NCBI GenBank assembly: GCA_902826215.1
Contig: CADEDY010000016.1
Coordinates: 3,109-67,108, forward strand
Length of the DNA: 64,000 bases
From: an uncultured Bacteroidota bacterium
GTDB taxonomy: Bacteria; Bacteroidota; Bacteroidia; Flavobacteriales_F; PHOS-HE28
Direction of reading: 5' to 3'
Numbering within the stretch: position 1 is the stretch's first letter; each line of letters begins with the position of its first letter. The translations under genes and the position numbers were made by a program. Positions 45,654-63,749 of this stretch are shown piece by piece. Below the pieces are notes generated by a model, which worked only from the letters and a program-made list of their open reading frames with translations, did not search any database and was not told the DNA's origin.

Positions 45654-48617
45654 ATGATCACGTTGCAGAGAATCATTCTTAGTGCAGGGTTGGCCACATC
45701 GGCCGGGCTACTTACGGCTCAGGAAGGGGCGCTCGATCCCACGTTCAATACTAACGATGTGGGTTTCGGACAAGGCATGGGGGTGCTCGGCACGCCGATC
45801 CTCACCCTGCAACCTGACGGCATGATCCTGATCGGCGGGACCGCCCTGTACAATGGCAGAAGCGCTCCCGGTCTGGCTCGAGCGAATGCGAACGGCTCAT
45901 TCGATGCGGGCTTCAACATAGGAACGGGGGCCAACAGCAATGTATGGGATGTGGCCGTTCAAGCGGATGGGAAGATCCTGATCGGCGGATCATTCACCCT
46001 CTTCAATGGCGTATCGCGAAATGGCATTGCCCGCTTGAACACGGACGGATCACTGGACACCGGTTTCGACCCCGGTAGCGGCGTGGTCGGCACGGTCTAC
46101 AGCTTGAACATACAGGCCGATGGCAAGATCATCCTCACTGGGAATTTTCTGACCTATAATGGTATCGTGCGCAACAACCTGGCACGGGTAAATTCGAACG
46201 GTAGCCTTGATACGAGCTTTGACCCCGGTACAGGAGCCAACTTCGAGATCGCGGATGCTGTGCTACAACCGGACGGTAAATTGCTGATCGGGGGGAGCTT
46301 CACCACGTACGGTGGAGTTTCTCGAAACCGCGTCGCGCGCGTCTTGGCGAACGGGATGTTGGACTCAGGATTCAACCCTGGAACCGGTGCATCGGATCCG
46401 GTAAGTTGCATCGCCTTGCGTTCGGATGGACGTGTAATGATCGGCGGTTCTTTCATCAATTACAATTCCACTGCGTGCGGCCGTATCGCTCGATTGAACA
46501 GCAACGGCAGCCTCGACGCCACGTTCAACACTGGGACCGGGGCCAACGGAGCTATCGATGAAATTTCGATACAACCCGATGGCAAGATCGTTCTGGGCGG
46601 CAGTTATACCGATTTCAACGGCACCGCTCAACCCTATCTGGTACGCGTGAATACGAACGGCACGTTCGACACCGGATTCGCACCGGCCGGGGATGGTGGA
46701 ATTTCCAGTATCGCGCTGCGCGCCGACGGGTCCATGTTTATTGGCGGAGTGTTCACCACCATGGGCGGATATGGTTACAACGGGCTCGCCCACCTCAACA
46801 CCGATGGGAATACGGACCTTACGTTCAACCCGGGATCGGGTGTGAACAGCTACCCGACCGCTTTGGCCGTGCAACAGGATGGAAAGGTGCTGCTGGGAGG
46901 TGGTTTCAGCGGGTTCAATGGTCCGGCAAGAAAGTTCCTGGCCAGGCTGCTTCCGGACGGATCACTCGATGCTTCCTACGATGCCCGGTTCACATCCGGG
47001 ATCTGGACCAGTGCGATCACCGTACAACCTGATGGCAAAGCGCTCGTAGGGGGAGTGTTCTGGACGGTCAACGGTATCACCCGCAACGGTCTGGTCCGCC
47101 TCGGCACCGACGGGAGCGTTGACACCGGATTCGATCCGGGATCGGGGACCTCGGGATCCGTGGATGGCATCATCGTTCAGCCCGATGGAAAGATCCTGAT
47201 CTGCGGCCAGTTCACTACGTTCAATGGTGCGCCACGGAACAGGATCGCACGTCTGTTACCGAACGGTAACGTGGATAGCGGATTCGATCCCGGAAGCGGT
47301 GCGAACCAGGCCGTACGGAACATCCTTCTGCGACCGGATGGTAAGATCGTCGCGGTCGGGGCCTTCACCACATTCAATGGCTTACCCCGCAACGGGGTCG
47401 TGCAATTGAACCCAGACGGAAGCGTCGATCAGCTGGTGGACTTCGGTGCTGGAGCCGACGCCAGCCTCAATGAAGCCGCGCTACAGGCCGATGGCAAAGT
47501 CCTCATCTCAGGCTGGTTCACGACGGTCAATGGCACACCCCGCAACAAGATCGCCCGTTTGAACGTGGATGGCACATTGGACAGCAGCTTCGATCCCGGG
47601 ACGGGGCTGGACATGCCTCCGACCTCCATCGTTGTTCAACCGGACAGCAAGATCATGATCGGTGGGTTCTTCACCACTTACAACGGCACCACAAGGAATA
47701 GGATGGCCATGCTGATGCCCAATGGGGATCTGGACCCGAACTTCGACCCTGGGACGGGACCCAGTGGCGCGGTTCTCGCAATTACTCCGCTTCCCGATGG
47801 GAAACACGTGTTGGGTGGTCAGTTCATTTCATACAACGGGATCGGCCGGAACAACATCGCCCGCATCAACGGAACCCCTCGTGCAAGCATTAGGCTGATG
47901 CTCGAAGGACCCTACAGCGCCACATTGATGAATGACGCCTTGCGCACCCTCCCCACCTTCCCGCTCACCCAGCCCTTCACGGCAATGGGCTATGCGCACC
48001 CGACGTTCACCGCAGGCAGCACGATCCCAACTTCGATCTTGAGCACCACCGGTAATAACGCCATCGTGGATTGGGTGATCGTGGAAATGCGACCGGCCGC
48101 GACGCCGGGCACCGTTGCGGCTTCACGTGCAGTTCTCTTGCAGCGCGATGGCGATGTGGTGGACCTCGATGGCGTGAGCACCGTCGGTTTCCCCGGCCTG
48201 GCTGCTGGCAGTTATTGCGTGGCGATCCGATCACGGAACCACCTGCCTGTAATGCTTTCAACGGCAACACCTGTTACCTACGGTTCGGGCATTGCCTTTG
48301 TGGACTTCACGTTACCGACCACACAGGTTTACGATGGTGGAGCGAGGGTAGCTACCGACGGTGTAATGGTGTTGGCGGCGGGCGATGTGAACTTCAATGG
48401 AACGGTGCGTTATACCGGAGATGCAAGCGACCGTGACCTCGTGCTTCTACGCATTGGCGGTGTGGTACCCACCGCCACCCTAGCGGGCTACTGGCCAGAG
48501 GACGCGAACATGGATGGGGCTGTTAAATACACCGGTCCAGAGAATGACCGCGATGTCGTCTTGCGCAGTATTGGTGGTGTCGTCCCAACGAACACGCGCA
48601 GTGCCGCGCTCCCATGA
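45654..48617 (+). CDS. Secreted delta-60 / SBBP beta-propeller repeat protein (about 17 repeats) with a C-terminal duplicated dockerin-like Ca-binding motif
   Basis: Signal peptide. Repeats of about 50 aa with the pattern NGSLDxxFDPGTG...DGKILIGGxFTxxNG..RNxIARL. The C-terminus carries DVNFNGTVRYTGDASDRDLVLLRIGGVVPT and DANMDGAVKYTGPENDRDVVLRSIGGVVPT. Confidence 0.75.
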   Translation: MITLQRIILSAGLATSAGLLTAQEGALDPTFNTNDVGFGQGMGVLGTPILTLQPDGMILIGGTALYNGRSAPGLARANANGSFDAGFNIGTGANSNVWDVAVQADGKILIGGSFTLFNGVSRNGIARLNTDGSLDTGFDPGSGVVGTVYSLNIQADGKIILTGNFLTYNGIVRNNLARVNSNGSLDTSFDPGTGANFEIADAVLQPDGKLLIGGSFTTYGGVSRNRVARVLANGMLDSGFNPGTGASDPVSCIALRSDGRVMIGGSFINYNSTACGRIARLNSNGSLDATFNTGTGANGAIDEISIQPDGKIVLGGSYTDFNGTAQPYLVRVNTNGTFDTGFAPAGDGGISSIALRADGSMFIGGVFTTMGGYGYNGLAHLNTDGNTDLTFNPGSGVNSYPTALAVQQDGKVLLGGGFSGFNGPARKFLARLLPDGSLDASYDARFTSGIWTSAITVQPDGKALVGGVFWTVNGITRNGLVRLGTDGSVDTGFDPGSGTSGSVDGIIVQPDGKILICGQFTTFNGAPRNRIARLLPNGNVDSGFDPGSGANQAVRNILLRPDGKIVAVGAFTTFNGLPRNGVVQLNPDGSVDQLVDFGAGADASLNEAALQADGKVLISGWFTTVNGTPRNKIARLNVDGTLDSSFDPGTGLDMPPTSIVVQPDSKIMIGGFFTTYNGTTRNRMAMLMPNGDLDPNFDPGTGPSGAVLAITPLPDGKHVLGGQFISYNGIGRNNIARINGTPRASIRLMLEGPYSATLMNDALRTLPTFPLTQPFTAMGYAHPTFTAGSTIPTSILSTTGNNAIVDWVIVEMRPAATPGTVAASRAVLLQRDGDVVDLDGVSTVGFPGLAAGSYCVAIRSRNHLPVMLSTATPVTYGSGIAFVDFTLPTTQVYDGGARVATDGVMVLAAGDVNFNGTVRYTGDASDRDLVLLRIGGVVPTATLAGYWPEDANMDGAVKYTGPENDRDVVLRSIGGVVPTNTRSAALP

Positions 48618-54664: not shown

Positions 54665-56701
54665 ATGTCCTTCCTACACCCGGCATTCCTCTGGGCCCTT
54701 ACCGCCCTGGCGATCCCGGTGCTCATCCACCTCTTCCAGCTTCGGCGCTTCAAGCGCATCGACTTTCCGAACGTTCGGTTCTTGGCGGAGATCTCGCAGC
54801 AGACGCGTGCTCGGAAGAAGGTGCAGCATTGGCTCGTGCTCTTGGCTCGCTTGCTCGCCCTGGCCTGTTTGGTATTGGCCTTCGCGCAACCCTACTTGCC
54901 CAGCAAAAGCGGCGCGGTGCAGGCCGGACAGCGGGCGGTATCGCTCTTCTTGGACGACTCCTTCAGCATGGACGGTCGCAACGCGCAAGGGCGCTTGTTG
55001 GATCAAGCCCGTAAAGGCGCACAGGATGCCGTGATGGCCTACAGTGCCACCGACCGTTTCCAAGTACTCACCGGCCAGTTCGGTGGCAAAGAGCAGATCC
55101 TGCTCGGGCGCGACGAAGCCCTCGATGCATCGGCACAAGCAGAGGTCGGTCCGTACTCCCGTTTGCTCAGCAAAGTGCTGTTGCGCCAACGTGAAGCCCT
55201 GGCCAGCAGCGAGGCACGGACCAAGCGGTCCATCCTCTTCACCGACCTGCAACGCTCCATCACCGATGTGGAAAGTTGGACCAACGACAGCCTCGTCCCC
55301 ACCGTGATCGTGCCGCTCACCGCCAGCACGCCGGACAACCTCAGCATCGACAGCGCCTGGTTCGGCAGCCCCGTTCGCCGCGCCGGACAGGATGAAGAAC
55401 TGCATGTCCGGATCCGCAACTACGGCGACCAAGAACTGGTGAATGTGCCATTGCGCTTGGATGTGGACGGACGACAACGCGCCGTGGCCTCCTTCAGCGT
55501 GGGTGGCGGTGCTGTGGTGGATACCACCTTGCGTTTCCTAGGCGATGGCCCCGGCAACCACTGGGGCGTGGTGAGCGTGACCGATCAACCCGTGGTGTTC
55601 GATGACCGCCTTTACATCGCGTACCAAGTGACCGACCGATTGCGCGTGCTGCTCGTGAGCGGTGGCGATGCAACCGGCGACCGCGCCGTCACCAGTGTTT
55701 TCGCAGGTGATAGCACGCACACCTTCACCACCCAACCCTACCGTGCGCTCGACCTCGCCGGACTTGCGGCGCAGGACCTCGTGGTGCTGAACGCCCTGCC
55801 CGATGTGCCCGGCGGACTGCTCAACGCGCTCACCGATTTCGTCGCCAATGGCGGCAGCATGGTCGTGTTCCCGCCGAGCCAAGGCGATGCCAGCCGCTAC
55901 ACCGAACTCTTCGGGGCCATGGGTGCGGCTGCTCCCACCCGTCTCGATACCGGCACCGTGCGCGTGGACCGCATCGACCTGGAAGAACCCTTCTACCGCG
56001 CCATCTTCCAGACCATGCCCCGCAACGTGGAACTGCCCGTGGTGCGCGAACGCTGGAACGTGCGCCCTGCTCCGGGCAGCGATGTTCTGCTGCGCTTGCA
56101 GGACGGCAGCCCCTTCCTCGCGCGCAGCATGCGGGGCAAGGGCACCGTGTACCTCTGCGCGGCGCCCTTGGCCGAAAGCGCAAGCAACCTCACCCGTCAC
56201 TCGCTCTTCGCCACGTCGCTGCTGCGCATGGCCGAACTGAGCCGCCCCATGGGCGCCCTCTACCACACCATCGGCGACGAGGCCAGCATTCCGTTGGAGA
56301 CCGCCACACCCACCGACGAGCCTCCACATTTGAAAGGTCCCGAAGGCCTGGATCTGGTGCCCGAAGTGCGTCGCACCGCCAGCCGCACCGAGCTGCTGTT
56401 GCACGATCAGGACCTGCCCGACGGCCCCTACTTCATCACCAGCGGCACCGACACCTTGAGCGCCGTTGCGCTGAACCTCGCCCGCCGCGAGAGCGACCTG
56501 CAAGCCTTCACCGGCGACGAGCTGCGCGCCCTCCTCACCGAGCGCGGGCTCACCACCTTCTCGGTGCTCGAAGGCGGCTCCGAGGATCTTTCGTTACGTT
56601 TGAATGAACTCGACCAGGGGCGCAAACTGTGGAAGTGGTTCATCCTCTTCGCCCTGCTCTTCCTGGCCGCTGAAGTGTTCCTGATCCGCTACGTCCGATG
56701 A
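54665..56701 (+). CDS. BatA-domain protein (N-terminal double-transmembrane domain), large periplasmic region, C-terminal TM anchor
   Basis: N-terminal FLHPAFLWALTALAIPVLIHLFQLRRFKRIDFPNVRFL matches the BatA/N-terminal double-TM domain. C-terminal helix WFILFALLFLAAEVFLI. 678 aa. Confidence 0.7.
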   Translation: MSFLHPAFLWALTALAIPVLIHLFQLRRFKRIDFPNVRFLAEISQQTRARKKVQHWLVLLARLLALACLVLAFAQPYLPSKSGAVQAGQRAVSLFLDDSFSMDGRNAQGRLLDQARKGAQDAVMAYSATDRFQVLTGQFGGKEQILLGRDEALDASAQAEVGPYSRLLSKVLLRQREALASSEARTKRSILFTDLQRSITDVESWTNDSLVPTVIVPLTASTPDNLSIDSAWFGSPVRRAGQDEELHVRIRNYGDQELVNVPLRLDVDGRQRAVASFSVGGGAVVDTTLRFLGDGPGNHWGVVSVTDQPVVFDDRLYIAYQVTDRLRVLLVSGGDATGDRAVTSVFAGDSTHTFTTQPYRALDLAGLAAQDLVVLNALPDVPGGLLNALTDFVANGGSMVVFPPSQGDASRYTELFGAMGAAAPTRLDTGTVRVDRIDLEEPFYRAIFQTMPRNVELPVVRERWNVRPAPGSDVLLRLQDGSPFLARSMRGKGTVYLCAAPLAESASNLTRHSLFATSLLRMAELSRPMGALYHTIGDEASIPLETATPTDEPPHLKGPEGLDLVPEVRRTASRTELLLHDQDLPDGPYFITSGTDTLSAVALNLARRESDLQAFTGDELRALLTERGLTTFSVLEGGSEDLSLRLNELDQGRKLWKWFILFALLFLAAEVFLIRYVR

Positions 56702-57999
56702 ACGAGATCGTACTTCGCAAGGTGAAGGTGGTGGACCCCGGTGGTCCGCACCACGACAGCATCGTGGACATCCTCATCCGCGATGGCCGCATCGAGAAGA
56801 TCGGCGAACGCATCGCCCGCGGCGACACCCCCGTGGTGAAGATCGACGGGGCGCATGCCAGTCCCGGTTGGGTGGATCTGCGCGCGCACTTCCGCGATCC
56901 CGGCGAAGAGTGGAAGGCCGGCATCACCAACGGCCTCGATGCCGCCGCTGCCGGTGGCTTCACTGCGGTGGCTGTGCTGCCCAGCACCAAACCCGTCACC
57001 GACGACCGCGCGGGTATCGGCTACCTGCTGCGCCAAGCCGAGGGCCACCCCGTGCAACTGCTGCCGCTGGGCGCCATCACCCAAGGCCTCAAGGGCGAAC
57101 AGCTCGCCGAACTGCACGACCAGCAACAGGCCGGTGCGGTGGGCTTCAGCGACGACCAGCACACCATCCGCAATGCGCGGCTGATGCTCCTTGCCCTGCA
57201 ATACGCCGCTGGTCTCGGGGCCAAGGGACTGCCCGTGATGGTGTTCCCGAACGACCCGGACCTGGCCCGCAACGGGCAGATGCACGAAGGCGCCATGAGC
57301 ACCCGCCTCGGCCTCAAGGGCCTGCCCCCGCTGGCCGAAACACTTCAGCTGCAACGCGACCTCGCGATCCTGGCATACACCGGTGGGCACCTGCACGTAT
57401 CAACGATCAGCACCGCCGAAAGCGTGGAACTGGTGCGCCAAGCGAAGGCGAAGAAGTTGCACATCACCGCCAGCGTGGCCACTCACAACCTGCTGCTGGA
57501 CGATGGCTGCCTGCGCGGCTTTGAGACCTGCTACAAGGTGCTGCCGCCACTGCGCGACCTGGAACACATCGATGCCCTGCGCGAAGGCGTGAAGGACGGC
57601 ACCATCGACGCCATCGTGAGCGACCACCGCCCTGAGGACCGCGAACACAAGGTGCTGGAATACGGCCCCGCCGCCTTCGGCATCATCGGGCTGGAGACCG
57701 CCTTCGGAGTGGCCAACACCGCCCTGAAAGGCCGCATGCCCTTGCGCCGCACCATCGAACGTTTCACCCACGGCCCGCGCGCCGTGCTGGGCCTGCCCCG
57801 CGTACACATCGCCGAGGGCACCGCCGCCAACATCACCCTCTTCGACCCCGAAGTGGACTGGACCTGCACCGAAGCCGACCTCGTGAGCAAGAGCCACAAC
57901 ACCCCTTTCTTGGGGCAACGGCTTACCGGCCGGCCGCTGGGCATTGTGGTTGGGAAGGTGGTGAGGATGGTGCCGGCGATGAAGGGCGAAGTAGCATAA
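56698..57999 (+). CDS. pyrC: Dihydroorotase (amidohydrolase superfamily, multifunctional-complex type)
   Basis: WVDLRAHFRDPG (metal-binding His pair context), FSDD, ITASVATHNL and DHRPED motifs. 433 aa. 4-nt overlap with the upstream gene. Confidence 0.85.
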   Translation: MNEIVLRKVKVVDPGGPHHDSIVDILIRDGRIEKIGERIARGDTPVVKIDGAHASPGWVDLRAHFRDPGEEWKAGITNGLDAAAAGGFTAVAVLPSTKPVTDDRAGIGYLLRQAEGHPVQLLPLGAITQGLKGEQLAELHDQQQAGAVGFSDDQHTIRNARLMLLALQYAAGLGAKGLPVMVFPNDPDLARNGQMHEGAMSTRLGLKGLPPLAETLQLQRDLAILAYTGGHLHVSTISTAESVELVRQAKAKKLHITASVATHNLLLDDGCLRGFETCYKVLPPLRDLEHIDALREGVKDGTIDAIVSDHRPEDREHKVLEYGPAAFGIIGLETAFGVANTALKGRMPLRRTIERFTHGPRAVLGLPRVHIAEGTAANITLFDPEVDWTCTEADLVSKSHNTPFLGQRLTGRPLGIVVGKVVRMVPAMKGEVA

Positions 58000-58129
58000 G
58001 TTGCTCCGTTAAGGAAGCTCCATCATTACGCCAAGACCTCTAATTGGCATCATAAGTTCGCGAAGAACGGAACAGCCACAAGCACACTTGGCAATCTCGA
58101 AATGCCGTTAGGTCTCCACACTGGGTGAA

Positions 58130-58888
58130 TTGGACAAGCGCTTGAAATATCTCTTGATCGTCTCGATCCTCTTGAACGGGATTCTGCTCTACTTGCTCTT
58201 CCGACCCGAGGCGATCGATCGAATCCCCCCTTGGCATCCATTCCAATTGAACTCGGACCTCACCTTGGGATCGATCGTGGACGATGGATATCGCTTCGCA
58301 AGTATGCCGTGTGGTCAAGTGCAATACACCAAGCAATTAGGCGATACCATCATTCAATATGAAGTTGAAGTCGATTGCAGATCCTATCATGGCAAGCATG
58401 AACCGAACTTCGAGTTCGGGGGTGATGAAGTGATCCCGGATTTGAATGAAGGCGAAAGAACGCAGGAGGAGATTGAACAGGAGAAGCTCAGCGCTAGAAA
58501 TTGGGAAGCGGCGGTCAAGTCGAACGCGTATTACCCGTGGACCCCAAATGAGATCGAAGGTTGCTATCAGAACATCAATTGGCGGGTATTCACCATAGTC
58601 CTCGGTCAAACGATCGATAGCCTCTTCATTGAGGACTACATCAGGAGCAAAGACGGCGTAGTGAATGAACACTTGAGCGATTGGAACGCACGCGATGGCG
58701 GAAATATCGTTGTCTATTACCCTGCGACATCGATCTACTTTCAATGTTCGCTGAGCCGCGACTGGTCCAGCGAAGAATCCGAACAATGGGAATTCAGGAT
58801 CGTAAGGACAATTCCTGACCTTGACCAGCGGGCGAGAGAAGCCAGACAGGAGCGCTCGAAGATGATCGGGAAGTACTATGGACGCTGA
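58130..58888 (+). CDS. Hypothetical membrane-anchored protein (TTG start at 58130; N-terminal TM helix). First gene of the low-GC islet.
   Basis: N-terminal LKYLLIVSILLNGILLYLLF helix. GC about 50-52% versus about 65-70% in the flanking genes. No recognised family. Confidence 0.5.
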   Translation: MDKRLKYLLIVSILLNGILLYLLFRPEAIDRIPPWHPFQLNSDLTLGSIVDDGYRFASMPCGQVQYTKQLGDTIIQYEVEVDCRSYHGKHEPNFEFGGDEVIPDLNEGERTQEEIEQEKLSARNWEAAVKSNAYYPWTPNEIEGCYQNINWRVFTIVLGQTIDSLFIEDYIRSKDGVVNEHLSDWNARDGGNIVVYYPATSIYFQCSLSRDWSSEESEQWEFRIVRTIPDLDQRAREARQERSKMIGKYYGR

Positions 58889-59016
58889 ATCGACGCAAGG
58901 TCCTCGATCTTCTACATCCTATTGAACCATACCGTTATCGGTTCCATGAAGTCGATCTCCGATCAAACCACGGAGGTCAACAGTTCGGTGATATCTTCGA
59001 ACAGTAACCTCACCCT

Positions 59017-59412
59017 ATGCGGAAGATCGCTGGCCTTTCCCTTCTCGTTTCCCTTCTCACAAGTTGCGGGCCTGTTGACCACAGGTGTGCTGAGGATGGA
59101 AAGCGGATCGCCGAACTGGACAGTGCTTATGTCATGGGTCTGCGACGAGGCGGGGAACAGATGGACCCAATGCATCTCGGTGAGCAGAAATACGATCTCA
59201 TGACCGTGCGTATGATGGCCGACCAAGAACACGTGCCTGTTGCCGATATCGCACTGGGCTATCAGGAACGATTGTTCTGCAGCGAAGACTGCGCGAGTTC
59301 AACTTTGGCCCAATTGAACAGTAAAGTGGACAGCTTGGTGAACCATAGAAGGCAGTTGCACATCTTGGACTCGCTTGTCATGGACAGCATACATCGGGGG
59401 TTGATCAGGTAG
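59017..59412 (+). CDS. Hypothetical small lipoprotein
   Basis: MRKIAGLSLLVSLLTSCG lipobox. 131 aa. Lies on the low-GC islet. Confidence 0.5.
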   Translation: MRKIAGLSLLVSLLTSCGPVDHRCAEDGKRIAELDSAYVMGLRRGGEQMDPMHLGEQKYDLMTVRMMADQEHVPVADIALGYQERLFCSEDCASSTLAQLNSKVDSLVNHRRQLHILDSLVMDSIHRGLIR

Positions 59413-59432
59413 CAGCGGAATTGAACTGATCC

Positions 59433-60356
59433 ATGGATTCCAATCCCGCCATCCTCTTCTGCAAGAACCCTGTTGATCCCAGCACGGTGGATCCGGATTT
59501 CGCGGCTGAGATGAATGCAGCAACGCAGGCTGGGTTCTCGACCGTACTCCTCGACTACGAAAGCCTCACCACAACGGACGATCCCGATCGTGCGCTGCGA
59601 AGTGTAAAGCAAGCAGCGCAGCGTACCAGGCTGATCTATCGAGGCTGGATGCTAACTCCACAGGAGTATACGAGGTTGTTCGTAGCCCTTGGAGCGAAGG
59701 GCTACGACCTGGTGAATAGCCCCACAGAGTACCAGAACTGCCACTATCTGCCCGATAGTTTGAAGTACATCAAGACCAGAACACCACGGGCCGTTTTCGC
59801 TCCCATCAACGACCAAAGCGATATTGAAAGCTTGGTGCAGATGGCCCATGTGTTCGGGAACTCGCCGGTCGTTATCAAGGATTACGTGAAGTCCGAAAAG
59901 CACGATTGGGAGCAGGCATGCTACGTTGCGAATGCCTTCGACAGTGTTTCACTAGAACGATCCATCGGCAACCTTTTGAAGCTTCGCGACAAGTACTTGA
60001 ACGTGGGTGTTGTGGTCCGTGAATTCGTGGAGTTGAACCTGTTGACCAACCATTCGAAAAGCGGGATGCCGTTGGCGGAGGAGTACCGGCTGTTCTTCTT
60101 CAACAACGAATTGCTATCCGCAGCTGCCTATTGGGAAGAGGGAACTTATGCGACCACACCAGTTGACACGAAGGAATTCGAGGCCGTCGCACGAACGGTC
60201 GAGAGCAACTTCTTCTGCATGGACATCGCTCGTAAGAAGAATGGTGAGCTCATCATCATCGAGCTTGGCGACGGACAAGTGGCAGGGTTACCAGAGCGGA
60301 TGGAGTGCCTCGAGTTCTATCGAACATTGTGGGCTAGGTACAAAGTCAGCTCGTAG
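59433..60356 (+). CDS. ATP-grasp fold protein (possibly R2K-clade / DUF4343-like)
   Basis: 307 aa. ATP-grasp-like segments VVIKDYVKSEKHDWEQACYV, VVVREFVEL and the C-terminal ELIIIELGDGQVAGLP resemble the Mg/ATP-binding strands of ATP-grasp enzymes. Assignment by eye; needs HMM confirmation. Confidence 0.55.
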   Translation: MDSNPAILFCKNPVDPSTVDPDFAAEMNAATQAGFSTVLLDYESLTTTDDPDRALRSVKQAAQRTRLIYRGWMLTPQEYTRLFVALGAKGYDLVNSPTEYQNCHYLPDSLKYIKTRTPRAVFAPINDQSDIESLVQMAHVFGNSPVVIKDYVKSEKHDWEQACYVANAFDSVSLERSIGNLLKLRDKYLNVGVVVREFVELNLLTNHSKSGMPLAEEYRLFFFNNELLSAAAYWEEGTYATTPVDTKEFEAVARTVESNFFCMDIARKKNGELIIIELGDGQVAGLPERMECLEFYRTLWARYKVSS

Positions 60357-60404
60357 TTCCAGACTATGTTGGAAACTGGGCAGAATAGAATTAACCACCA
60401 TACA

Positions 60405-61010
60405 ATGAAATACCAGATCCGTGCTCGGTTTACGGACACCACTATACGTGTATATCAGGCGTACAGTCCTGCCATTGCTAGACCTGCACTTGAGGCGGGC
60501 GAGTTCGTCGCGCCTTTCAAAATGGGGCGCATGACCTGGATCAAACCCTCATTCAATTGGATGATGTACCGATGCGGATACGGCCAGAAAGAAGGGCAAG
60601 AATTCGTTCTTGCCATCGACATTTCGCGAGAAGGTTTCGAGTGGGCATTGGCGAACGCTGTGCTTTCCCATCCCCTGCCTGGGCTATACCCATCGCACGA
60701 GGCATGGAAAACCGAATTGGTGAACAGTTCCGTTCGGGTGCAATGGGACCCAGAGCGCAATTGGGCGCTTCAAGAGATACCGAATATCCGCTCCATTCAG
60801 ATCGGCCTGTCCGGGGAAGCAGTGGAACGCTATGTCAATGAATGGATCACAGGCATCACCGATGTATCCGCCATAGCTGCTCAACAGGCGGAATCACCTT
60901 CGGTCATGATCAACGAACATCCTCAAACCCAAGAGCAGCCTTATCCATTGCCCATTTCGATCGCAGAGAAACTCATCCCCACCGGAGAGAGCGAGCAAGC
61001 CGGGTTGTAG
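60405..61010 (+). CDS. DUF4291-like protein (start at MKYQIRA; the ORF track begins at 60366)
   Basis: IRVYQAY...WIKPSFNWMMYRCGYGQKEGQEFVLAIDI segment matches my recollection of DUF4291. 202 aa. Lies 9 nt after the ATP-grasp gene (48 nt if the ATG 60405 start is used). Confidence 0.5.
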   Translation: MKYQIRARFTDTTIRVYQAYSPAIARPALEAGEFVAPFKMGRMTWIKPSFNWMMYRCGYGQKEGQEFVLAIDISREGFEWALANAVLSHPLPGLYPSHEAWKTELVNSSVRVQWDPERNWALQEIPNIRSIQIGLSGEAVERYVNEWITGITDVSAIAAQQAESPSVMINEHPQTQEQPYPLPISIAEKLIPTGESEQAGL

Positions 61011-61084
61011 TAGAGTCCCTTGACCAGCACAGGGTCTTCCATCTTCGTAGACCCCGCCCGCATTTTGACTTACCCCTCACGTCC

Positions 61085-61348
61085 ATGAAGATCACCCTCG
61101 ACATCCCCGACCATGACCCCGACCGTGGTTTGCAACACACCTGGGTCGACGGATTCACCATCCAAGTTTCAGTGGCGGATGGCGAAGTGCTGATCGAAGC
61201 GAACGATGCGGGCTTGATGTCGTTGGCGAACCACTTGGTGATGCTGGCACAGCAGGGCACACCGGATAGCAGCCACATCCATTTGGACGAGCACAATGCG
61301 TTGGAGGATGGGTCAACGGCACTCGTGATCGGGAAGTTGGCTGGGTAG
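61085..61348 (+). CDS. Hypothetical 87-aa protein (MKITLDIPDHD...); last ORF of the low-GC islet
   Basis: ORF with an ATG at 61085 inside the longer track ORF 60842-61348. The size and acidic character are reminiscent of small immunity-type proteins, but no family was recognised. Confidence 0.35.
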   Translation: MKITLDIPDHDPDRGLQHTWVDGFTIQVSVADGEVLIEANDAGLMSLANHLVMLAQQGTPDSSHIHLDEHNALEDGSTALVIGKLAG

Positions 61349-61425
61349 GCTCGGACCCACGGCGACCCGAAATGCACCACGCACCTTGTCGATGACTTGC
61401 TAACCGACCCTCTCAAGTGTTCAGG

Positions 61426-62232
61426 TCAGATGGGGCCGGGTGCAGGTGGAACGGGTTCGAGGAACGGATGCGCCGAGGGATCCTGCACGACAGCGTCCAA
61501 CCAGGCGCTGAATTGCGAGACGCGCACGAAGTGCTCCACGGCACCATAGCTGCACGGACCATCGTTACCCGGTTCGCCCATGGAACTGATACCGGCCAGG
61601 CGAAGGCTGCCATCGGTTCCGATCAGGGCTGGTCCACCGCTATCGCCCGGTCCGCTGGTACCTTCCTTATCCGTCGCATCCGGTCCGGGTGCGTCGTAGT
61701 CGAAGAGGAGGTGCGTGTCGTCCACCGCATCCACCACATTGGTGTAGGTGCGCAACTTCCCGTCGCGCAACCAGGTACCGTCCGGGTTGCGGCGGTCGCC
61801 GTGGCCGGCAAGAATGATCATGCGGCCCAACTCGTCGTTCCCTGTGTAATACGGGACCGGTTCCACGTGTGGCACGCTCTCCTTCAACTGAAGGAGCGCG
61901 ATGTCGTACCGCCCCATCGGTGTGAACCGCGGATGCAGGTACACCTTGTCAACTGACCTGATCGTTCCGTCGTCGAAGTACACGTTGAGCGCGCCTTCAC
62001 TCCTCCGGTACAAGCCATAGGCGACATGCGCGGCGGTGAGCACCCATTGCGGGGCGATCAAGGTGCCATCGCCTCCCTGTTGCCCCACTTTGCACACGGC
62101 GTTGATGCTCGTTACACCATTCATCGGGTCGGTGTGCTGCGGGCGCTCGAAACCGATCTCCTTTCCACCACAACCGGACCGCATGGTGGTGATGACCACA
62201 CTGGCGAGTACGAAGGCGATCGGATTATTCAT
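61426..62232 (-). CDS. Secreted trypsin-like (S1 family) serine protease
   Basis: Signal peptide. Catalytic triad contexts TAAHV (His), DIALL (Asp) and GDSGGP (Ser). 268 aa. Confidence 0.8.
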   Translation of the reverse strand: MNNPIAFVLASVVITTMRSGCGGKEIGFERPQHTDPMNGVTSINAVCKVGQQGGDGTLIAPQWVLTAAHVAYGLYRRSEGALNVYFDDGTIRSVDKVYLHPRFTPMGRYDIALLQLKESVPHVEPVPYYTGNDELGRMIILAGHGDRRNPDGTWLRDGKLRTYTNVVDAVDDTHLLFDYDAPGPDATDKEGTSGPGDSGGPALIGTDGSLRLAGISSMGEPGNDGPCSYGAVEHFVRVSQFSAWLDAVVQDPSAHPFLEPVPPAPGPI

Positions 62233-62674
62233 CGCAATTGGAGATCAACTTGTCCAACGTCACTTTCAACGCAGCCACCTCTGTTGCGGAGACGCCTTTG
62301 AGAGCTTTGCTCCGGTAGTCCTTCACCACGGGTGCGAGCAGGGTGAGCTGCTTCGCGCCTTTGCGGGTCAGCGCCAAGCTGACACTGCGCCGGTCCTCCT
62401 GCGGGATCGTACGCGTGACCAATTGTGCTTCCACGAGCAGATCGATCATCCGAGCGATCGAGGCTTTGTCCTTGAAGACCATTTCGGCCACCGTGCCCTG
62501 CTGGATACCGGGTTCCGCCTCGATCGCATTCAACACCAGCCACTGGTCCACAGTAATGGACGAACCGGCAGCGACCAAACGGCGCTGCGCGAACTGACGG
62601 TACATCTTTATGGCGCGTTCGATCGTGTAGAAGGGGGTCTTGCCGATGTCGCTCATGACGGGATCACGATACAA
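62225..62674 (-). CDS. MarR family transcriptional regulator
   Basis: Winged-helix MarR pattern (ITVDQWLVLNAI...GTVAEM...DKASIARMIDLLVEAQLV.R..DRR). 8-nt overlap with the protease gene start. Confidence 0.75.
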   Translation of the reverse strand: MYRDPVMSDIGKTPFYTIERAIKMYRQFAQRRLVAAGSSITVDQWLVLNAIEAEPGIQQGTVAEMVFKDKASIARMIDLLVEAQLVTRTIPQEDRRSVSLALTRKGAKQLTLLAPVVKDYRSKALKGVSATEVAALKVTLDKLISNCDE

Positions 62675-62813: not shown

Positions 62814-63749
62814 TCAATTATCCAGGATCAACCGATACCCCACGCCACGGATGTTGGCGATGCGCACCTTCGGGTCGGCTTCCAGCTTCTTGCGCAGTTT
62901 GGAGATGAAGACATCCAGGGTCCTACCGACGTAGTCGCTTTCGTTGCCCCACACTTCCTTCAGCATCACCTCCCGTGCGACCGTTTCATTCGCGCGGGCA
63001 TGGAGCAAGTCCAGCAGGTCGGCTTCTTTGCCGGAGAGTTCCACCTTTCGGTCCTGGATGCTCAATTCCAACTTGCCTTTGTCGAAGTGGAAGGCACCTA
63101 TCGGCACGCCGGAACCGTTGTCGGTGTAAACCGGAACAGCCTTCTTCCGGAAGACCGCGAACGCGAGGAGTGTGAGGAGCAGACCGAGACCGACAGCGAG
63201 GATCCATCCCTTGGGGCCTTGAAAGGTCGTGGGCACCGTGACCGGCATCCCAGCCAGTTGCTTCTCGGGTGCTGCGGCATCCAGTAGGGTGATGCGTAAG
63301 GCGTAGCACGCACGGGGCAACGCACGCGAAAGGCAGGGCATGATGGCGAGCGTATCGACGGCGCGGTGCTCGTAGCTGTGCACCACGTCGCGCGTTCCGC
63401 AGCGCTCCACCTCCACCACGTAATTCGCGGATAGCCGTGTCGCCTTCATCACACTGTCCACGGTGGCGGCCAACTTCTCGGGAACGAACCCGAATTCCGT
63501 ACCGAAGGAGACCAGGTAGGTATCAGCATCGCGCTCGACGGGAAGTACCAAGGACGTGGTATCGCCGACCGACAACAGCACCGCGTGCCCGATCATGCGC
63601 ACGCCGACATGCAGGTGTGGGGGACCCACTTCACTGCGCTGTGCACGCACCGGCGCGAGCAGCAACAAGGCCCCGAAGAAGCATAGAAAGGGCCGAGGAA
63701 GCCTGCCGAACATGCCCCGAAGGTATTGCGCTAAGACGTTGGTCCACAA
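62814..63749 (-). CDS. Membrane-anchored ToxR/CadC-like transcriptional regulator with C-terminal OmpR/PhoB-type winged-helix domain (trans_reg_C)
   Basis: C-terminal LSGKEADLLDLL...VWG...RTLDVFISKLRKKLE...IRGVGYRL is a trans_reg_C domain. One internal TM helix (WILAVGLGLLLTLLAFAVF). N-terminal signal and periplasmic region. Confidence 0.7.
   Translation of the reverse strand: MWTNVLAQYLRGMFGRLPRPFLCFFGALLLLAPVRAQRSEVGPPHLHVGVRMIGHAVLLSVGDTTSLVLPVERDADTYLVSFGTEFGFVPEKLAATVDSVMKATRLSANYVVEVERCGTRDVVHSYEHRAVDTLAIMPCLSRALPRACYALRITLLDAAAPEKQLAGMPVTVPTTFQGPKGWILAVGLGLLLTLLAFAVFRKKAVPVYTDNGSGVPIGAFHFDKGKLELSIQDRKVELSGKEADLLDLLHARANETVAREVMLKEVWGNESDYVGRTLDVFISKLRKKLEADPKVRIANIRGVGYRLILDN

Follow-up and report, generated by a model that had tools for sequence, protein, structure and literature searches.

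What is the low-GC stretch that follows pyrC in an uncultured Flavobacteriales genome, and do the genes that it carries act together? A preliminary description of the 64,000-nt window (the whole stretch of DNA analysed here) had proposed an islet at 58000-61350, inserted between pyrC and an S1 protease gene, with five genes (here g1 to g5) on one strand, and had argued that it was acquired horizontally. We found a genuine but ordinary small genomic islet, and no new system is defined by it. On the whole we favour the explanation that it is a hotspot islet with a mosaic of accessory genes, possibly protecting against toxins.

A low-GC block begins at the end of pyrC

The reported fall in GC content over 58000-61350, with recovery near the protease gene, was confirmed by several measures. 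In 300-nt windows the GC content passed from 0.68 (57650-57949) to 0.49-0.56 (57950-60949) and then to 0.61-0.64 (61250-61849), and the three 1-kb bins spanning 58001-61000 (0.497, 0.534 and 0.525) were the lowest of all 64 bins. The GC content of 58000-61350 was 0.525 against 0.585 for the window (z = -4.9 relative to non-overlapping 3.35-kb windows; mean 0.5845, sd 0.012, minimum 0.556), and its tetranucleotide distance also deviated (z = 4.2). An interval likelihood scan placed the maximum-likelihood low-GC segment at 57989-60976 (GC about 0.52), with an LLR of 31.1; 300 block shuffles gave at most 11.6. At the codon level, the GC3 values of g1 (0.63), g2 (0.63), g3 (0.68) and g4 (0.58) all lay below the window mean of 0.73 (sd 0.058). 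The BatA and pyrC pair upstream (54909-57942, GC 0.65) is a high-GC outlier of equal strength (LLR 31.4), a state that is conserved in relatives, and the GC step at the islet looks larger because of it. Binary GC segmentation detected no change point, the islet lying directly against this high-GC segment.

The extent first proposed was correct for the low-GC part, but not for its right end. The Imm32 cassette located there (GC 0.579, GC3 0.76) has a native composition and is not part of the low-GC block, while the block holding g1 to g4 (57989-61021) has a GC content of 0.518. The GC content of the MarR and S1 peptidase stretch that follows (61426-62674) is 0.593. The features are collected in Table 1.

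Table 1. Features of the pyrC locus, in window coordinates
Feature	Position	Strand	Basis
pyrC (dihydroorotase), conserved left flank	56698-57999	+	TIGR00857, 325 bits
Strain-specific low-GC block with g1 to g4	57989-61021	.	Maximum-likelihood segment; no DNA homology in the sister strain; missing in 59 related loci
g1, 252 aa, N-terminal TM anchor	58130-58888	+	Homologue alignment
g2, 131-aa Cys-rich lipoprotein	59017-59412	+	Signal peptide ending LLTSC
g3, R2K.3 ATP-grasp, predicted ATP-dependent amide/peptide ligase	59433-60356	+	PF14243, motif, lysines
g4, DUF4291 protein	60405-61010	+	PF14124
Imm32 cassette: spacer plus 87-aa gene (g5) at 61085-61348	61022-61349	+	PF15566
S1/trypsin-like peptidase, lipoprotein signal	61426-62232	-	Pfam Trypsin
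MarR regulator	62225-62674	-	Pfam MarR; 8-nt overlap with the S1 peptidase
Trans_reg_C (OmpR-type winged-helix), first conserved right-flank gene	62814-63749	-	Orthologue in L006

The site after pyrC differs between strains

The BatA-pyrC order is conserved in about 50 related MAGs, and 59 related BatA-pyrC loci were compared with the window over 10 kb. None of the 59 carried g1 to g4 within this distance. Among them is the Flavobacteriales MAG contig JADJLR010000001 (hereafter the sister strain), which was 98.1% identical to the window over 11,293 nt and the right junction of which lies beyond the compared span. Its homology with the window ended at 57988, 11 nt ahead of the pyrC stop, and the compositional edge at 57989 coincides with this break to the nucleotide. 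Beyond it the DNA of the sister strain is entirely different, sharing with the window only diverged Imm32 copies and fragments. Its 8.5 kb of cargo includes MORN_2 (YwqK-like), Imm32, PIN and T9SS proteins, and after it comes a CUB/PKD gene; the same gene lies directly 3′ of pyrC in another related locus, L006. Low-GC cargo follows pyrC in a third locus, L009, as well.

The insertion between pyrC and the S1 protease gene was upheld on the left flank only. The protease and MarR genes had no match in the 59 related loci, and synteny resumed at 62814 with the Trans_reg_C gene, the L006 orthologue of which is 74% identical, lies 2.7 kb after pyrC and precedes the same pair of TonB_C genes. The protease and MarR genes belong to the variable region despite their native GC content, and not to the ancestral right flank. 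When the Trans_reg_C protein was searched for by exact match, all contigs recovered carried the islet.

Since the sister strain carries different cargo and all 59 loci lack g1 to g4, the site after pyrC is very probably a strain-variable hotspot at which g1 to g4 were gained horizontally. The nearest homologues of the islet genes were 44-75% identical, and for each of g1 to g4 the homologues were scattered and rare in other orders. Horizontal acquisition withstood the refutation test set for it in the preliminary description. It holds for g1 to g4 (57989-61021) but not for the Imm32 cassette, which has native GC content and is also present in the sister strain.

Chromosomal hotspots of gene transfer include small islets between conserved core genes that lack an integrase. 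The islet described here resembles them in being small (about 3-5 kb), in its deviating GC content and codon usage, core-gene flanks, cargo that differs between near-identical strains and the lack of mobility genes, and we saw no essential difference; its one particular feature is the Imm32 debris that recurs through the sister strain's version. This debris suggests repeated recombination at the Imm32 cassette. In the scenario that we propose, the host, an uncultured GC-rich wastewater Flavobacteriales lineage, would have a recombination hotspot 3′ of pyrC, which here holds a foreign 3.0-kb block of four mutually unrelated genes, then an older resident orphan Imm32 gene and then the MarR and S1 peptidase pair. 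The block would have entered by homologous or illegitimate recombination, and not through a site-specific integrase, using the conserved DNA on either side: pyrC at its left, and at its right the Imm32 cassette or sequence next to it. Its donor may have been an unsampled member of the Bacteroidota of about 50% GC, or the block may be partly ameliorated.

The block might instead be what is left of a mobile element, whether integrative element, transposon cargo or prophage fragment, after decay that removed its integrase and ends. Such a remnant would fit the left breakpoint, which is sharp and falls in the 3′-terminal part of a housekeeping gene, the other cargo that the sister strain has at this site, and the IS66 genes that adjoin a DUF4291 gene on a Burkholderia plasmid. 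We consider it unlikely. The absence of an integrase, tRNA and flanking direct repeats noted in the preliminary description was borne out: no integrase or transposase was found among the window ORFs or Pfam matches, the window has no tRNA genes, the 54-64 kb region gave no Rfam matches, and there were neither flanking direct or inverted terminal repeats nor an att-like copy of the pyrC 3′ end. The islet showed no DNA similarity to phages, the sole match to plasmid DNA was the conserved DUF4291 gene, no protein had a significant match among the PHROGs (phage families), and g1 and g4 had no relatives in viral contigs.

The islet genes belong to poorly known families

All five genes are present on the + strand at the places first given, and a paralogue search found no copies elsewhere in the window. 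Their spacers measure 128 nt (g1-g2), 20 nt (g2-g3), about 48 nt (g3-g4) and 74 nt (g4-g5); the short spacers from g2 to g4 are also compatible with a true operon. Promoter and terminator scans gave fewer matches than in shuffled sequence, and these scans are not informative for Bacteroidota. None of the five proteins matched PADLOC models of known and candidate anti-phage defence systems at E ≤ 0.1, and none matched NCBIfam.

The description of g1 as a TM-anchored protein of 252 aa with a TTG start proved sound. The start is forced by a stop at 58109-58111 and the lack of any ATG or GTG ahead of the conserved N-terminus, and two homologues also use a non-ATG start codon. The family shares conserved Cys residues and a WHPF...PCGQVQ motif, and g1 had no match in Pfam. 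Among 5.8 billion proteins we found only 11 homologues, all at ≤52% identity except P0241, a 248-aa call of g1 itself (99% identical). The named homologues come from Tenacibaculum and Salibacteraceae, the nearest are in genomes of 28-38% GC (g1 itself is 50% GC), and they sit in long same-strand arrays of unrelated small genes without Pfam matches. The AF2 model of g1 (pLDDT 58) was of unusable quality.

The signal peptide of g2 agrees with its initial designation as a 131-aa lipoprotein. Its family is also rare (15 cluster representatives in 1.84 billion), with Cys24, Cys88 and Cys92 invariant and a C-terminal DSLvxDSIxRG motif. The AF2 model (pLDDT 85) matched no PDB fold (best E 0.12). Profile searches of g1 and g2 against the PDB were empty or spurious, g2 having no profile match there, and neither protein could be assigned to a Pfam or NCBIfam family.

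The g3 product, first called ATP-grasp-like, matches PF14243 (R2K_3; E 7.9e-29, 101.4 bits; gathering cut-off 26.3 bits). The R2K.3 family is recognised by a last strand with ExGD instead of ExN and by conserved RAGNYA-domain lysines (Burroughs, Zhang & Aravind 2015, PMC4431377). The g3 protein likewise has ExGD (E277-L-G-D280) and lysines K149, K153 and K156, all invariant across an alignment of 12 sequences (mean column identity 71%), and is predicted from its sequence to be an ATP-dependent amide/peptide ligase. It had 747 homologues at ≤57% identity; among viral contigs the R2K relatives numbered just three, all distant and on contigs of very large size. The sporadic distribution and occasional GNAT neighbour described for the family (PMC4431377) are further likenesses. 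A Pfam census of 149 neighbour proteins from 42 R2K.3 loci recovered scattered GNAT (4) and RlaP (3) proteins and no Imm families, and clustering the neighbours of close homologues revealed no recurrent partner.

The DUF4291 assignment of g4 was likewise sustained, by a full-length match to PF14124 (E 1.7e-66, 224 bits). Translation probably starts at Met14 (60405) of an ORF that is open from 60366, and the source contigs are annotated with a protein of 201 aa here. DUF4291 has been predicted to have an ADP-ribosyltransferase-like fold, with its QA[YF], WIK and [AS]IQ motifs aligned to ART motifs I-III (PMC12522546). The g4 protein has QAY (31-33), WIK (58-60) and SIQ and shares with the family the stand-alone length of about 200 aa, and by this likeness an ART fold and NAD-dependent transfer activity are predicted for it. 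It carries neither a trafficking domain nor an N-terminal toxin-delivery domain and has no sequence relative in the PDB. The best 120 DUF4291 matches were 54-75% identical. The two closest homologues examined (75% and 65%) lie in unrelated gene contexts with no ATP-grasp neighbour, and six independent annotated plasmid copies have heterogeneous contexts, none (0/6) with an ATP-grasp neighbour. One DUF4291 gene of Treponema is the first of a same-strand array that includes a SMI1/KNR4 (SUKH) immunity-type gene. The neighbours named for the family, TetR, NUDIX, Macro, ARG and KptA (PMC12522546), are all absent beside g4.

The 87-aa acidic protein, g5, exists as an ORF as described but is no longer without a family, since it matches Imm32 (PF15566; E 4.7e-14, 52.5 bits; gathering cut-off 27 bits). 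The partner toxins given for Imm32 are Ntox12, Ntox37 and Ntox7 (PMC3482391). Pfam identified no cognate toxin beside g5, the neighbours being the DUF4291 gene and the S1 peptidase gene, and g5 is therefore an orphan immunity gene. The sister strain carries two Imm32 copies (86-87% DNA identity to the window's cassette) and a 37-nt fragment. Imm32 is a cassette separate from g1 to g4 and is common, in diverged form, to the sister strain.

The islet genes do not form a conserved cassette

DUF4291, g1, g2 and Imm32 were each absent within 3-6 kb of all 83 other R2K.3 loci (3 genomic/metagenomic and 80 metagenomic), and the association of R2K.3 with DUF4291 and Imm32 is unreported in PMC4431377. 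We therefore rejected the reading of g1 to g5 as a conserved functional cassette; their homologues occur in unrelated contexts.

Each gene is likely to have a task of its own and not to be part of a common machine. Imm32 would neutralise incoming RNase toxins of the BECR type (Ntox7/12/37) by binding them, g3 would be an ATP-dependent amide ligase with a protein or peptide as substrate, the reaction of g4 would be NAD-dependent and of the ADP-ribosyl type, and g1 and g2 would be envelope proteins. The selective value would most likely be protective, as a small heterogeneous array of the polyimmunity type. Acquired interbacterial defence islands of Bacteroidales lie on mobile elements or with a recombinase and carry T6SS immunity genes. 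The islet is like them in its Bacteroidota host, orphan immunity gene and variation between strains, but has no mobile element, recombinase or T6SS immunity genes.

The likeness to polyimmunity loci (Zhang et al. 2012, PMC3482391) extends to closely spaced, unrelated small genes on one strand, the lack of a toxin, content that varies between the window and the sister strain, and a bona fide Imm32; the Imm32 copies and MORN_2/YwqK-like gene of the sister strain add to it. The islet differs in having one recognised immunity gene of five, two conserved enzymes and no adjacent recombinase, and is shorter than the 'extended' polyimmunity loci with four or more recognised immunity genes. That the islet functions as a protective array is, in our view, possible but somewhat doubtful. 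Several observations point away from it: just one of the five genes is in a recognised immunity family, the R2K.3 neighbourhoods lack Imm families and the DUF4291 neighbourhood survey named no immunity genes (PMC12522546), and g3 and g4 show a high level of conservation between genera and between phyla, whereas conflict proteins evolve fast. The locus places five poorly known families (two of them very rare, and two of them large DUFs with predictions from computation only) in a defined accessory, probably conflict-related context.

A bolder version of the protective array, which we regard as improbable, would have R2K.3 ligases and DUF4291 as enzymatic immunity or antidote proteins beside Imm32, reversing or pre-empting modifications made by incoming toxins, with g1 and g2 as new envelope-located immunity families. 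If true, polymorphic-toxin biology would gain enzyme-type immunity families, and DUF4291, with thousands of members, fungi included, would receive its first functional context.

Alternatively, g1 to g5, or at least g2 to g5, might form one functional module, a new toxin-immunity or anti-phage system in which the ATP-grasp ligase and the ART-fold enzyme jointly modify a target protein and Imm32 is the antidote. The co-oriented genes, their short spacers and the Imm-family gene 3′ of g4 are consistent with this, and for both enzyme families a role in biological conflicts or in ADP-ribosylation signalling has been put forward, each being linked elsewhere to ADP-ribosylglycohydrolases (PMC4431377, PMC12522546). 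However, the missing co-occurrence, seen in the R2K.3 loci and again beside the DUF4291 homologues and plasmid copies, largely refutes this very improbable reading. The sister strain moreover has Imm32 without g1 to g4, the GC content of Imm32 differs from that of the block, the PADLOC search was negative, and g4 lacks the domains of a delivered toxin.

In the least probable reading the region is an ancestral one that relatives have lost, and its low GC content reflects local mutational or expression effects and not a foreign origin: the GC3 of 0.58-0.68 is just moderately under the host mean, and a g1 richer in GC than its homologues' genomes could mean long residence in a GC-rich genome (or a donor of about 50% GC), but the absence of g1 to g4 from all 59 loci, including outgroups with other genes directly after pyrC, would need many independent losses, and the scattered homologues and the coincidence of compositional edge and homology break also argue against it.

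The locus provides a clear strain-level exchange point just after pyrC that is useful for strain tracking, and it informs accessory-gene flux in activated-sludge communities.

Base composition after pyrC

In 300-nt windows, GC fell from 0.68 (57650-57949) to 0.49-0.56 (57950-60949) and had returned to 0.61-0.64 by 61250-61849. The three 1-kb bins of 58001-61000 (GC 0.497, 0.534 and 0.525) were the lowest of the window's 64. Across 58000-61350, which a preliminary description had marked as a low-GC islet of five ORFs, GC was 0.525 compared with 0.585 for the window, 4.9 sd under equal-size non-overlapping windows, and the tetranucleotide distance from the window average was the second largest (z = 4.2). 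An interval likelihood scan placed the low-GC segment at 57989-60976 (LLR 31.1; the top LLR in 300 block shuffles was 11.6). For the first four genes, g1-g4, GC3 was 0.58-0.68; the mean for the window was 0.73 (sd 0.058). The described drop in GC was confirmed.

The contrast with flanking DNA of 65-72% GC had nevertheless been inflated by the neighbouring genes. The BatA-like gene and pyrC (54909-57942) formed a high-GC outlier (GC 0.65, LLR 31.4) as strong as the islet; GC3 was highest in pyrC (0.84), whose codon-usage distance was also atypical. This high GC was kept in L042, a sister-strain MAG contig (JADJLR010000001), and in L006, the pyrC locus of a more distant relative. The outlier is therefore intrinsic rather than foreign.

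Features of the islet, its right flank and the corresponding site in L042
Feature	Position	Strand	Description
g1	58130-58888	+	N-terminal TM helix
g2	59017-59412	+	Lipoprotein; family as rare as that of g1
g3	59433-60356	+	R2K.3 ATP-grasp enzyme (PF14243, 101 bits)
g4	ORF opens 60366; probable start 60405; end 61010	+	Full-length DUF4291 (224 bits)
g5	61085-61348	+	Imm32 (52.5 bits)
S1 (trypsin-like) peptidase and MarR	61426-62674	-	MarR overlaps peptidase by 8 nt
L042 cargo	L042 11289-19800		516-aa secreted protein; MORN_2 (YwqK-like) and 295-aa genes; 259-aa gene upstream of PIN gene, as a pair; two T9SS-tailed proteins, one an M28 peptidase

Strain comparison at the pyrC site

Short contigs of four metagenome runs also carried the window locus, which belongs to an uncultured Flavobacteriales lineage, and BatA-pyrC synteny was kept in about 50 related MAG species. 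L042 matched the window at 98.1% identity across 11,293 nt up to position 57988, with unrelated DNA beyond; this homology ended 11 nt short of the pyrC stop, and the break coincided with the compositional edge at 57989. The cargo that follows pyrC in L042 is different from that of the window, 8.5 kb long and partly low in GC. After it comes a CUB/PKD gene, which in L006 lies directly after pyrC. In L009, another relative (pyrC 80% identical), low-GC DNA (0.48-0.53) begins right after pyrC (L009 11293-17119) and encodes proteins of 356 and 1471 aa, while deeper relatives have a lipoprotein gene and def there. The L009 cargo is independent evidence for variability of the site after pyrC, and this site is a recurrent breakpoint.

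Genes g1-g4 were absent from all 59 related loci, L042 included. Horizontal acquisition, as first proposed for the islet, is supported with corrected boundaries: the block g1-g4 (57989-61021) was gained, and the Imm32 cassette (61022-61349), previously counted with it, is resident. A hotspot at the pyrC site combined with horizontal gene transfer is very probably the correct reading.

The S1 peptidase/MarR pair was also missing from all 59 related loci, though its GC is native; this, too, is a variable region. The peptidase has a lipoprotein-type signal (...MRSGC) and gave a weak PADLOC match to the LmuA-type protease (5.5e-10). Conserved synteny returned at 62814 with a Trans_reg_C gene and two TonB_C genes, as in L006.

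The Imm32 cassette

The only sequence common to the cargoes of the window and L042 was the Imm32 cassette. At 86-87% identity, L042 carried it three times, as an almost complete copy, a 5' fragment and a piece of 37 nt, scattered among the cargo genes (L042 11349-11385, 13064-13251 and 15406-15672). The composition of the window cassette was native (GC 0.579, GC3 0.76). Since it is shared with L042 and native in composition, the cassette was at the site earlier than g1-g4, which is the newly gained unit. The debris in L042 suggests that recombination occurred at this cassette more than once.

In the spacer after the truncated L042 copy, two 28-nt arms separated by 130 nt form an inverted repeat with 89% complementarity (L042 13573-13600 and 13731-13758); it may be a small element, either mobile or structured. 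In sample SRR29782968, the assembly broke between Imm32 and the trypsin gene: of the contigs L001 and L168, one ended just past Imm32 and the other inside the peptidase. Strain heterogeneity at this junction could account for the break.

The five genes

All five ORFs were present as described, and none had a paralogue elsewhere in the window, also in agreement with the preliminary description. The TTG start of g1 was confirmed and is forced by an in-frame stop upstream. Non-ATG starts were seen in three family members (window 58130, TTG; L074 2836 and L076 4621, both on other retrieved contigs and translated L at position 1), and may be a trait of the family. No match to g1 was obtained in Pfam, NCBIfam or PADLOC. 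Only 11 homologues were found among 5.8 billion proteins, at most 52% identical once a shorter prediction of g1 itself (99% identical) is set aside, and just two carried names (Tenacibaculum and Salibacteraceae). In the family alignment the WHPF...PCGQVQ...IQYE region was strongly conserved, and three Cys residues were common to the members; the predicted structure of g1 was too low in quality for use. The g2 family comprised 15 cluster representatives in 1.84 billion, which share invariant cysteines and, at the C terminus, a DSLvxDSIxRG motif. The structure of g2 was predicted confidently, and a fold search of the PDB gave no match.

The ATP-grasp and DUF4291 assignments held. The g3 product carries the ExGD motif and conserved lysines that define R2K.3, a group predicted to ligate peptides onto proteins in an ATP-dependent manner and to act in biological conflict (Burroughs et al. 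2015, PMC4431377). The QAY, WIK and SIQ motifs were all present in g4; a 2025 survey aligned these DUF4291 motifs to ART motifs I-III, ART activity being a prediction (PMC12522546). Imm32 is an immunity family whose partners in polymorphic toxin systems are Ntox12, Ntox37 and Ntox7 (PMC3482391). Because no toxin gene adjoins g5, it is an orphan immunity gene.

Gene contexts and proposed function

There was no evidence that g1-g5 form a single system. None of the other islet genes occurred in three R2K.3 contexts (Elizabethkingia, Taibaiella and a metagenome contig) or in 80 metagenome R2K.3 loci (454 kb covered), and close R2K.3 homologues had no recurrent neighbour. A Pfam census of 149 neighbours from 42 R2K.3 loci returned only scattered GNAT (4) and RlaP (3) genes. 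Homologues of g1 lay within long same-strand arrays of unrelated, Pfam-less genes, and PADLOC gave no match for g1-g5. The two closest DUF4291 homologues examined adjoined a restriction enzyme or housekeeping genes, and annotated plasmid copies had varied contexts. We regard the islet as a mosaic of accessory genes acting independently.

Among the plasmid copies, DUF4291 bordered a cdiAIB-like hemagglutinin locus on a Ralstonia megaplasmid and adjoined a 14.7-kb gene on a Burkholderia megaplasmid. On Treponema saccharophilum pTS1 (L164 3980-8453) it was first in a row of nine small genes sharing one strand, one of which encodes an SMI1/KNR4 (SUKH-type immunity) protein. These plasmids offer a first hint that DUF4291 genes may often lie near toxin-immunity loci.

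The islet resembles small heterogeneous polyimmunity loci (Zhang et al. 2012, PMC3482391) in its mutually unrelated same-strand genes with short spacers, its freedom from toxins and its variable content between strains. It differs from them in that only one gene belongs to a recognised immunity family and in that g3 and g4 encode enzymes with strong sequence conservation. Protection in interbacterial conflict is a tentative proposal for the benefit of the islet, one we hold at somewhat less than even odds. Imm32 would bind incoming RNase toxins, g3 would work as an ATP-dependent ligase and g4 as an NAD-using ART-fold enzyme, and g1 and g2 would work in the envelope.

Mode of arrival

As had been noted from the sequence, no integrase, tRNA or flanking direct repeats were found; nor were a transposase, inverted terminal repeats or a duplicated pyrC 3' end. 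An Rfam search revealed no element. There was no DNA similarity to phages, the only plasmid similarity was to the conserved DUF4291 gene, and viral contigs held no relatives of g1 or g4. With no mobility genes, repeats, att-like copy or phage match, we infer import by recombination over site-specific integration; the block would enter via flanking conserved DNA. The islet belongs to a known kind, small genomic islets that lack an integrase and occupy a hotspot. The nearest homologues were 44-52% (g1), 43-47% (g2), at most 57% (g3) and 75% (g4) identical, in genomes of 28-61% GC. The donor of g1-g4 is unsampled.

Other features of the window

Ten paralogous genes (724-788 aa) lie head-to-tail on the minus strand at 10450-32853. 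All three of those tested contained a SprB repeat, DUF11, DUF7619 and a T9SS C-terminal sorting domain; the ten form a large tandem family, predicted to encode proteins secreted to the cell surface. On the plus strand, 45654-48617 encodes a 987-aa protein in which the DUF5122 beta-propeller repeat occurs 14 times (556 bits).
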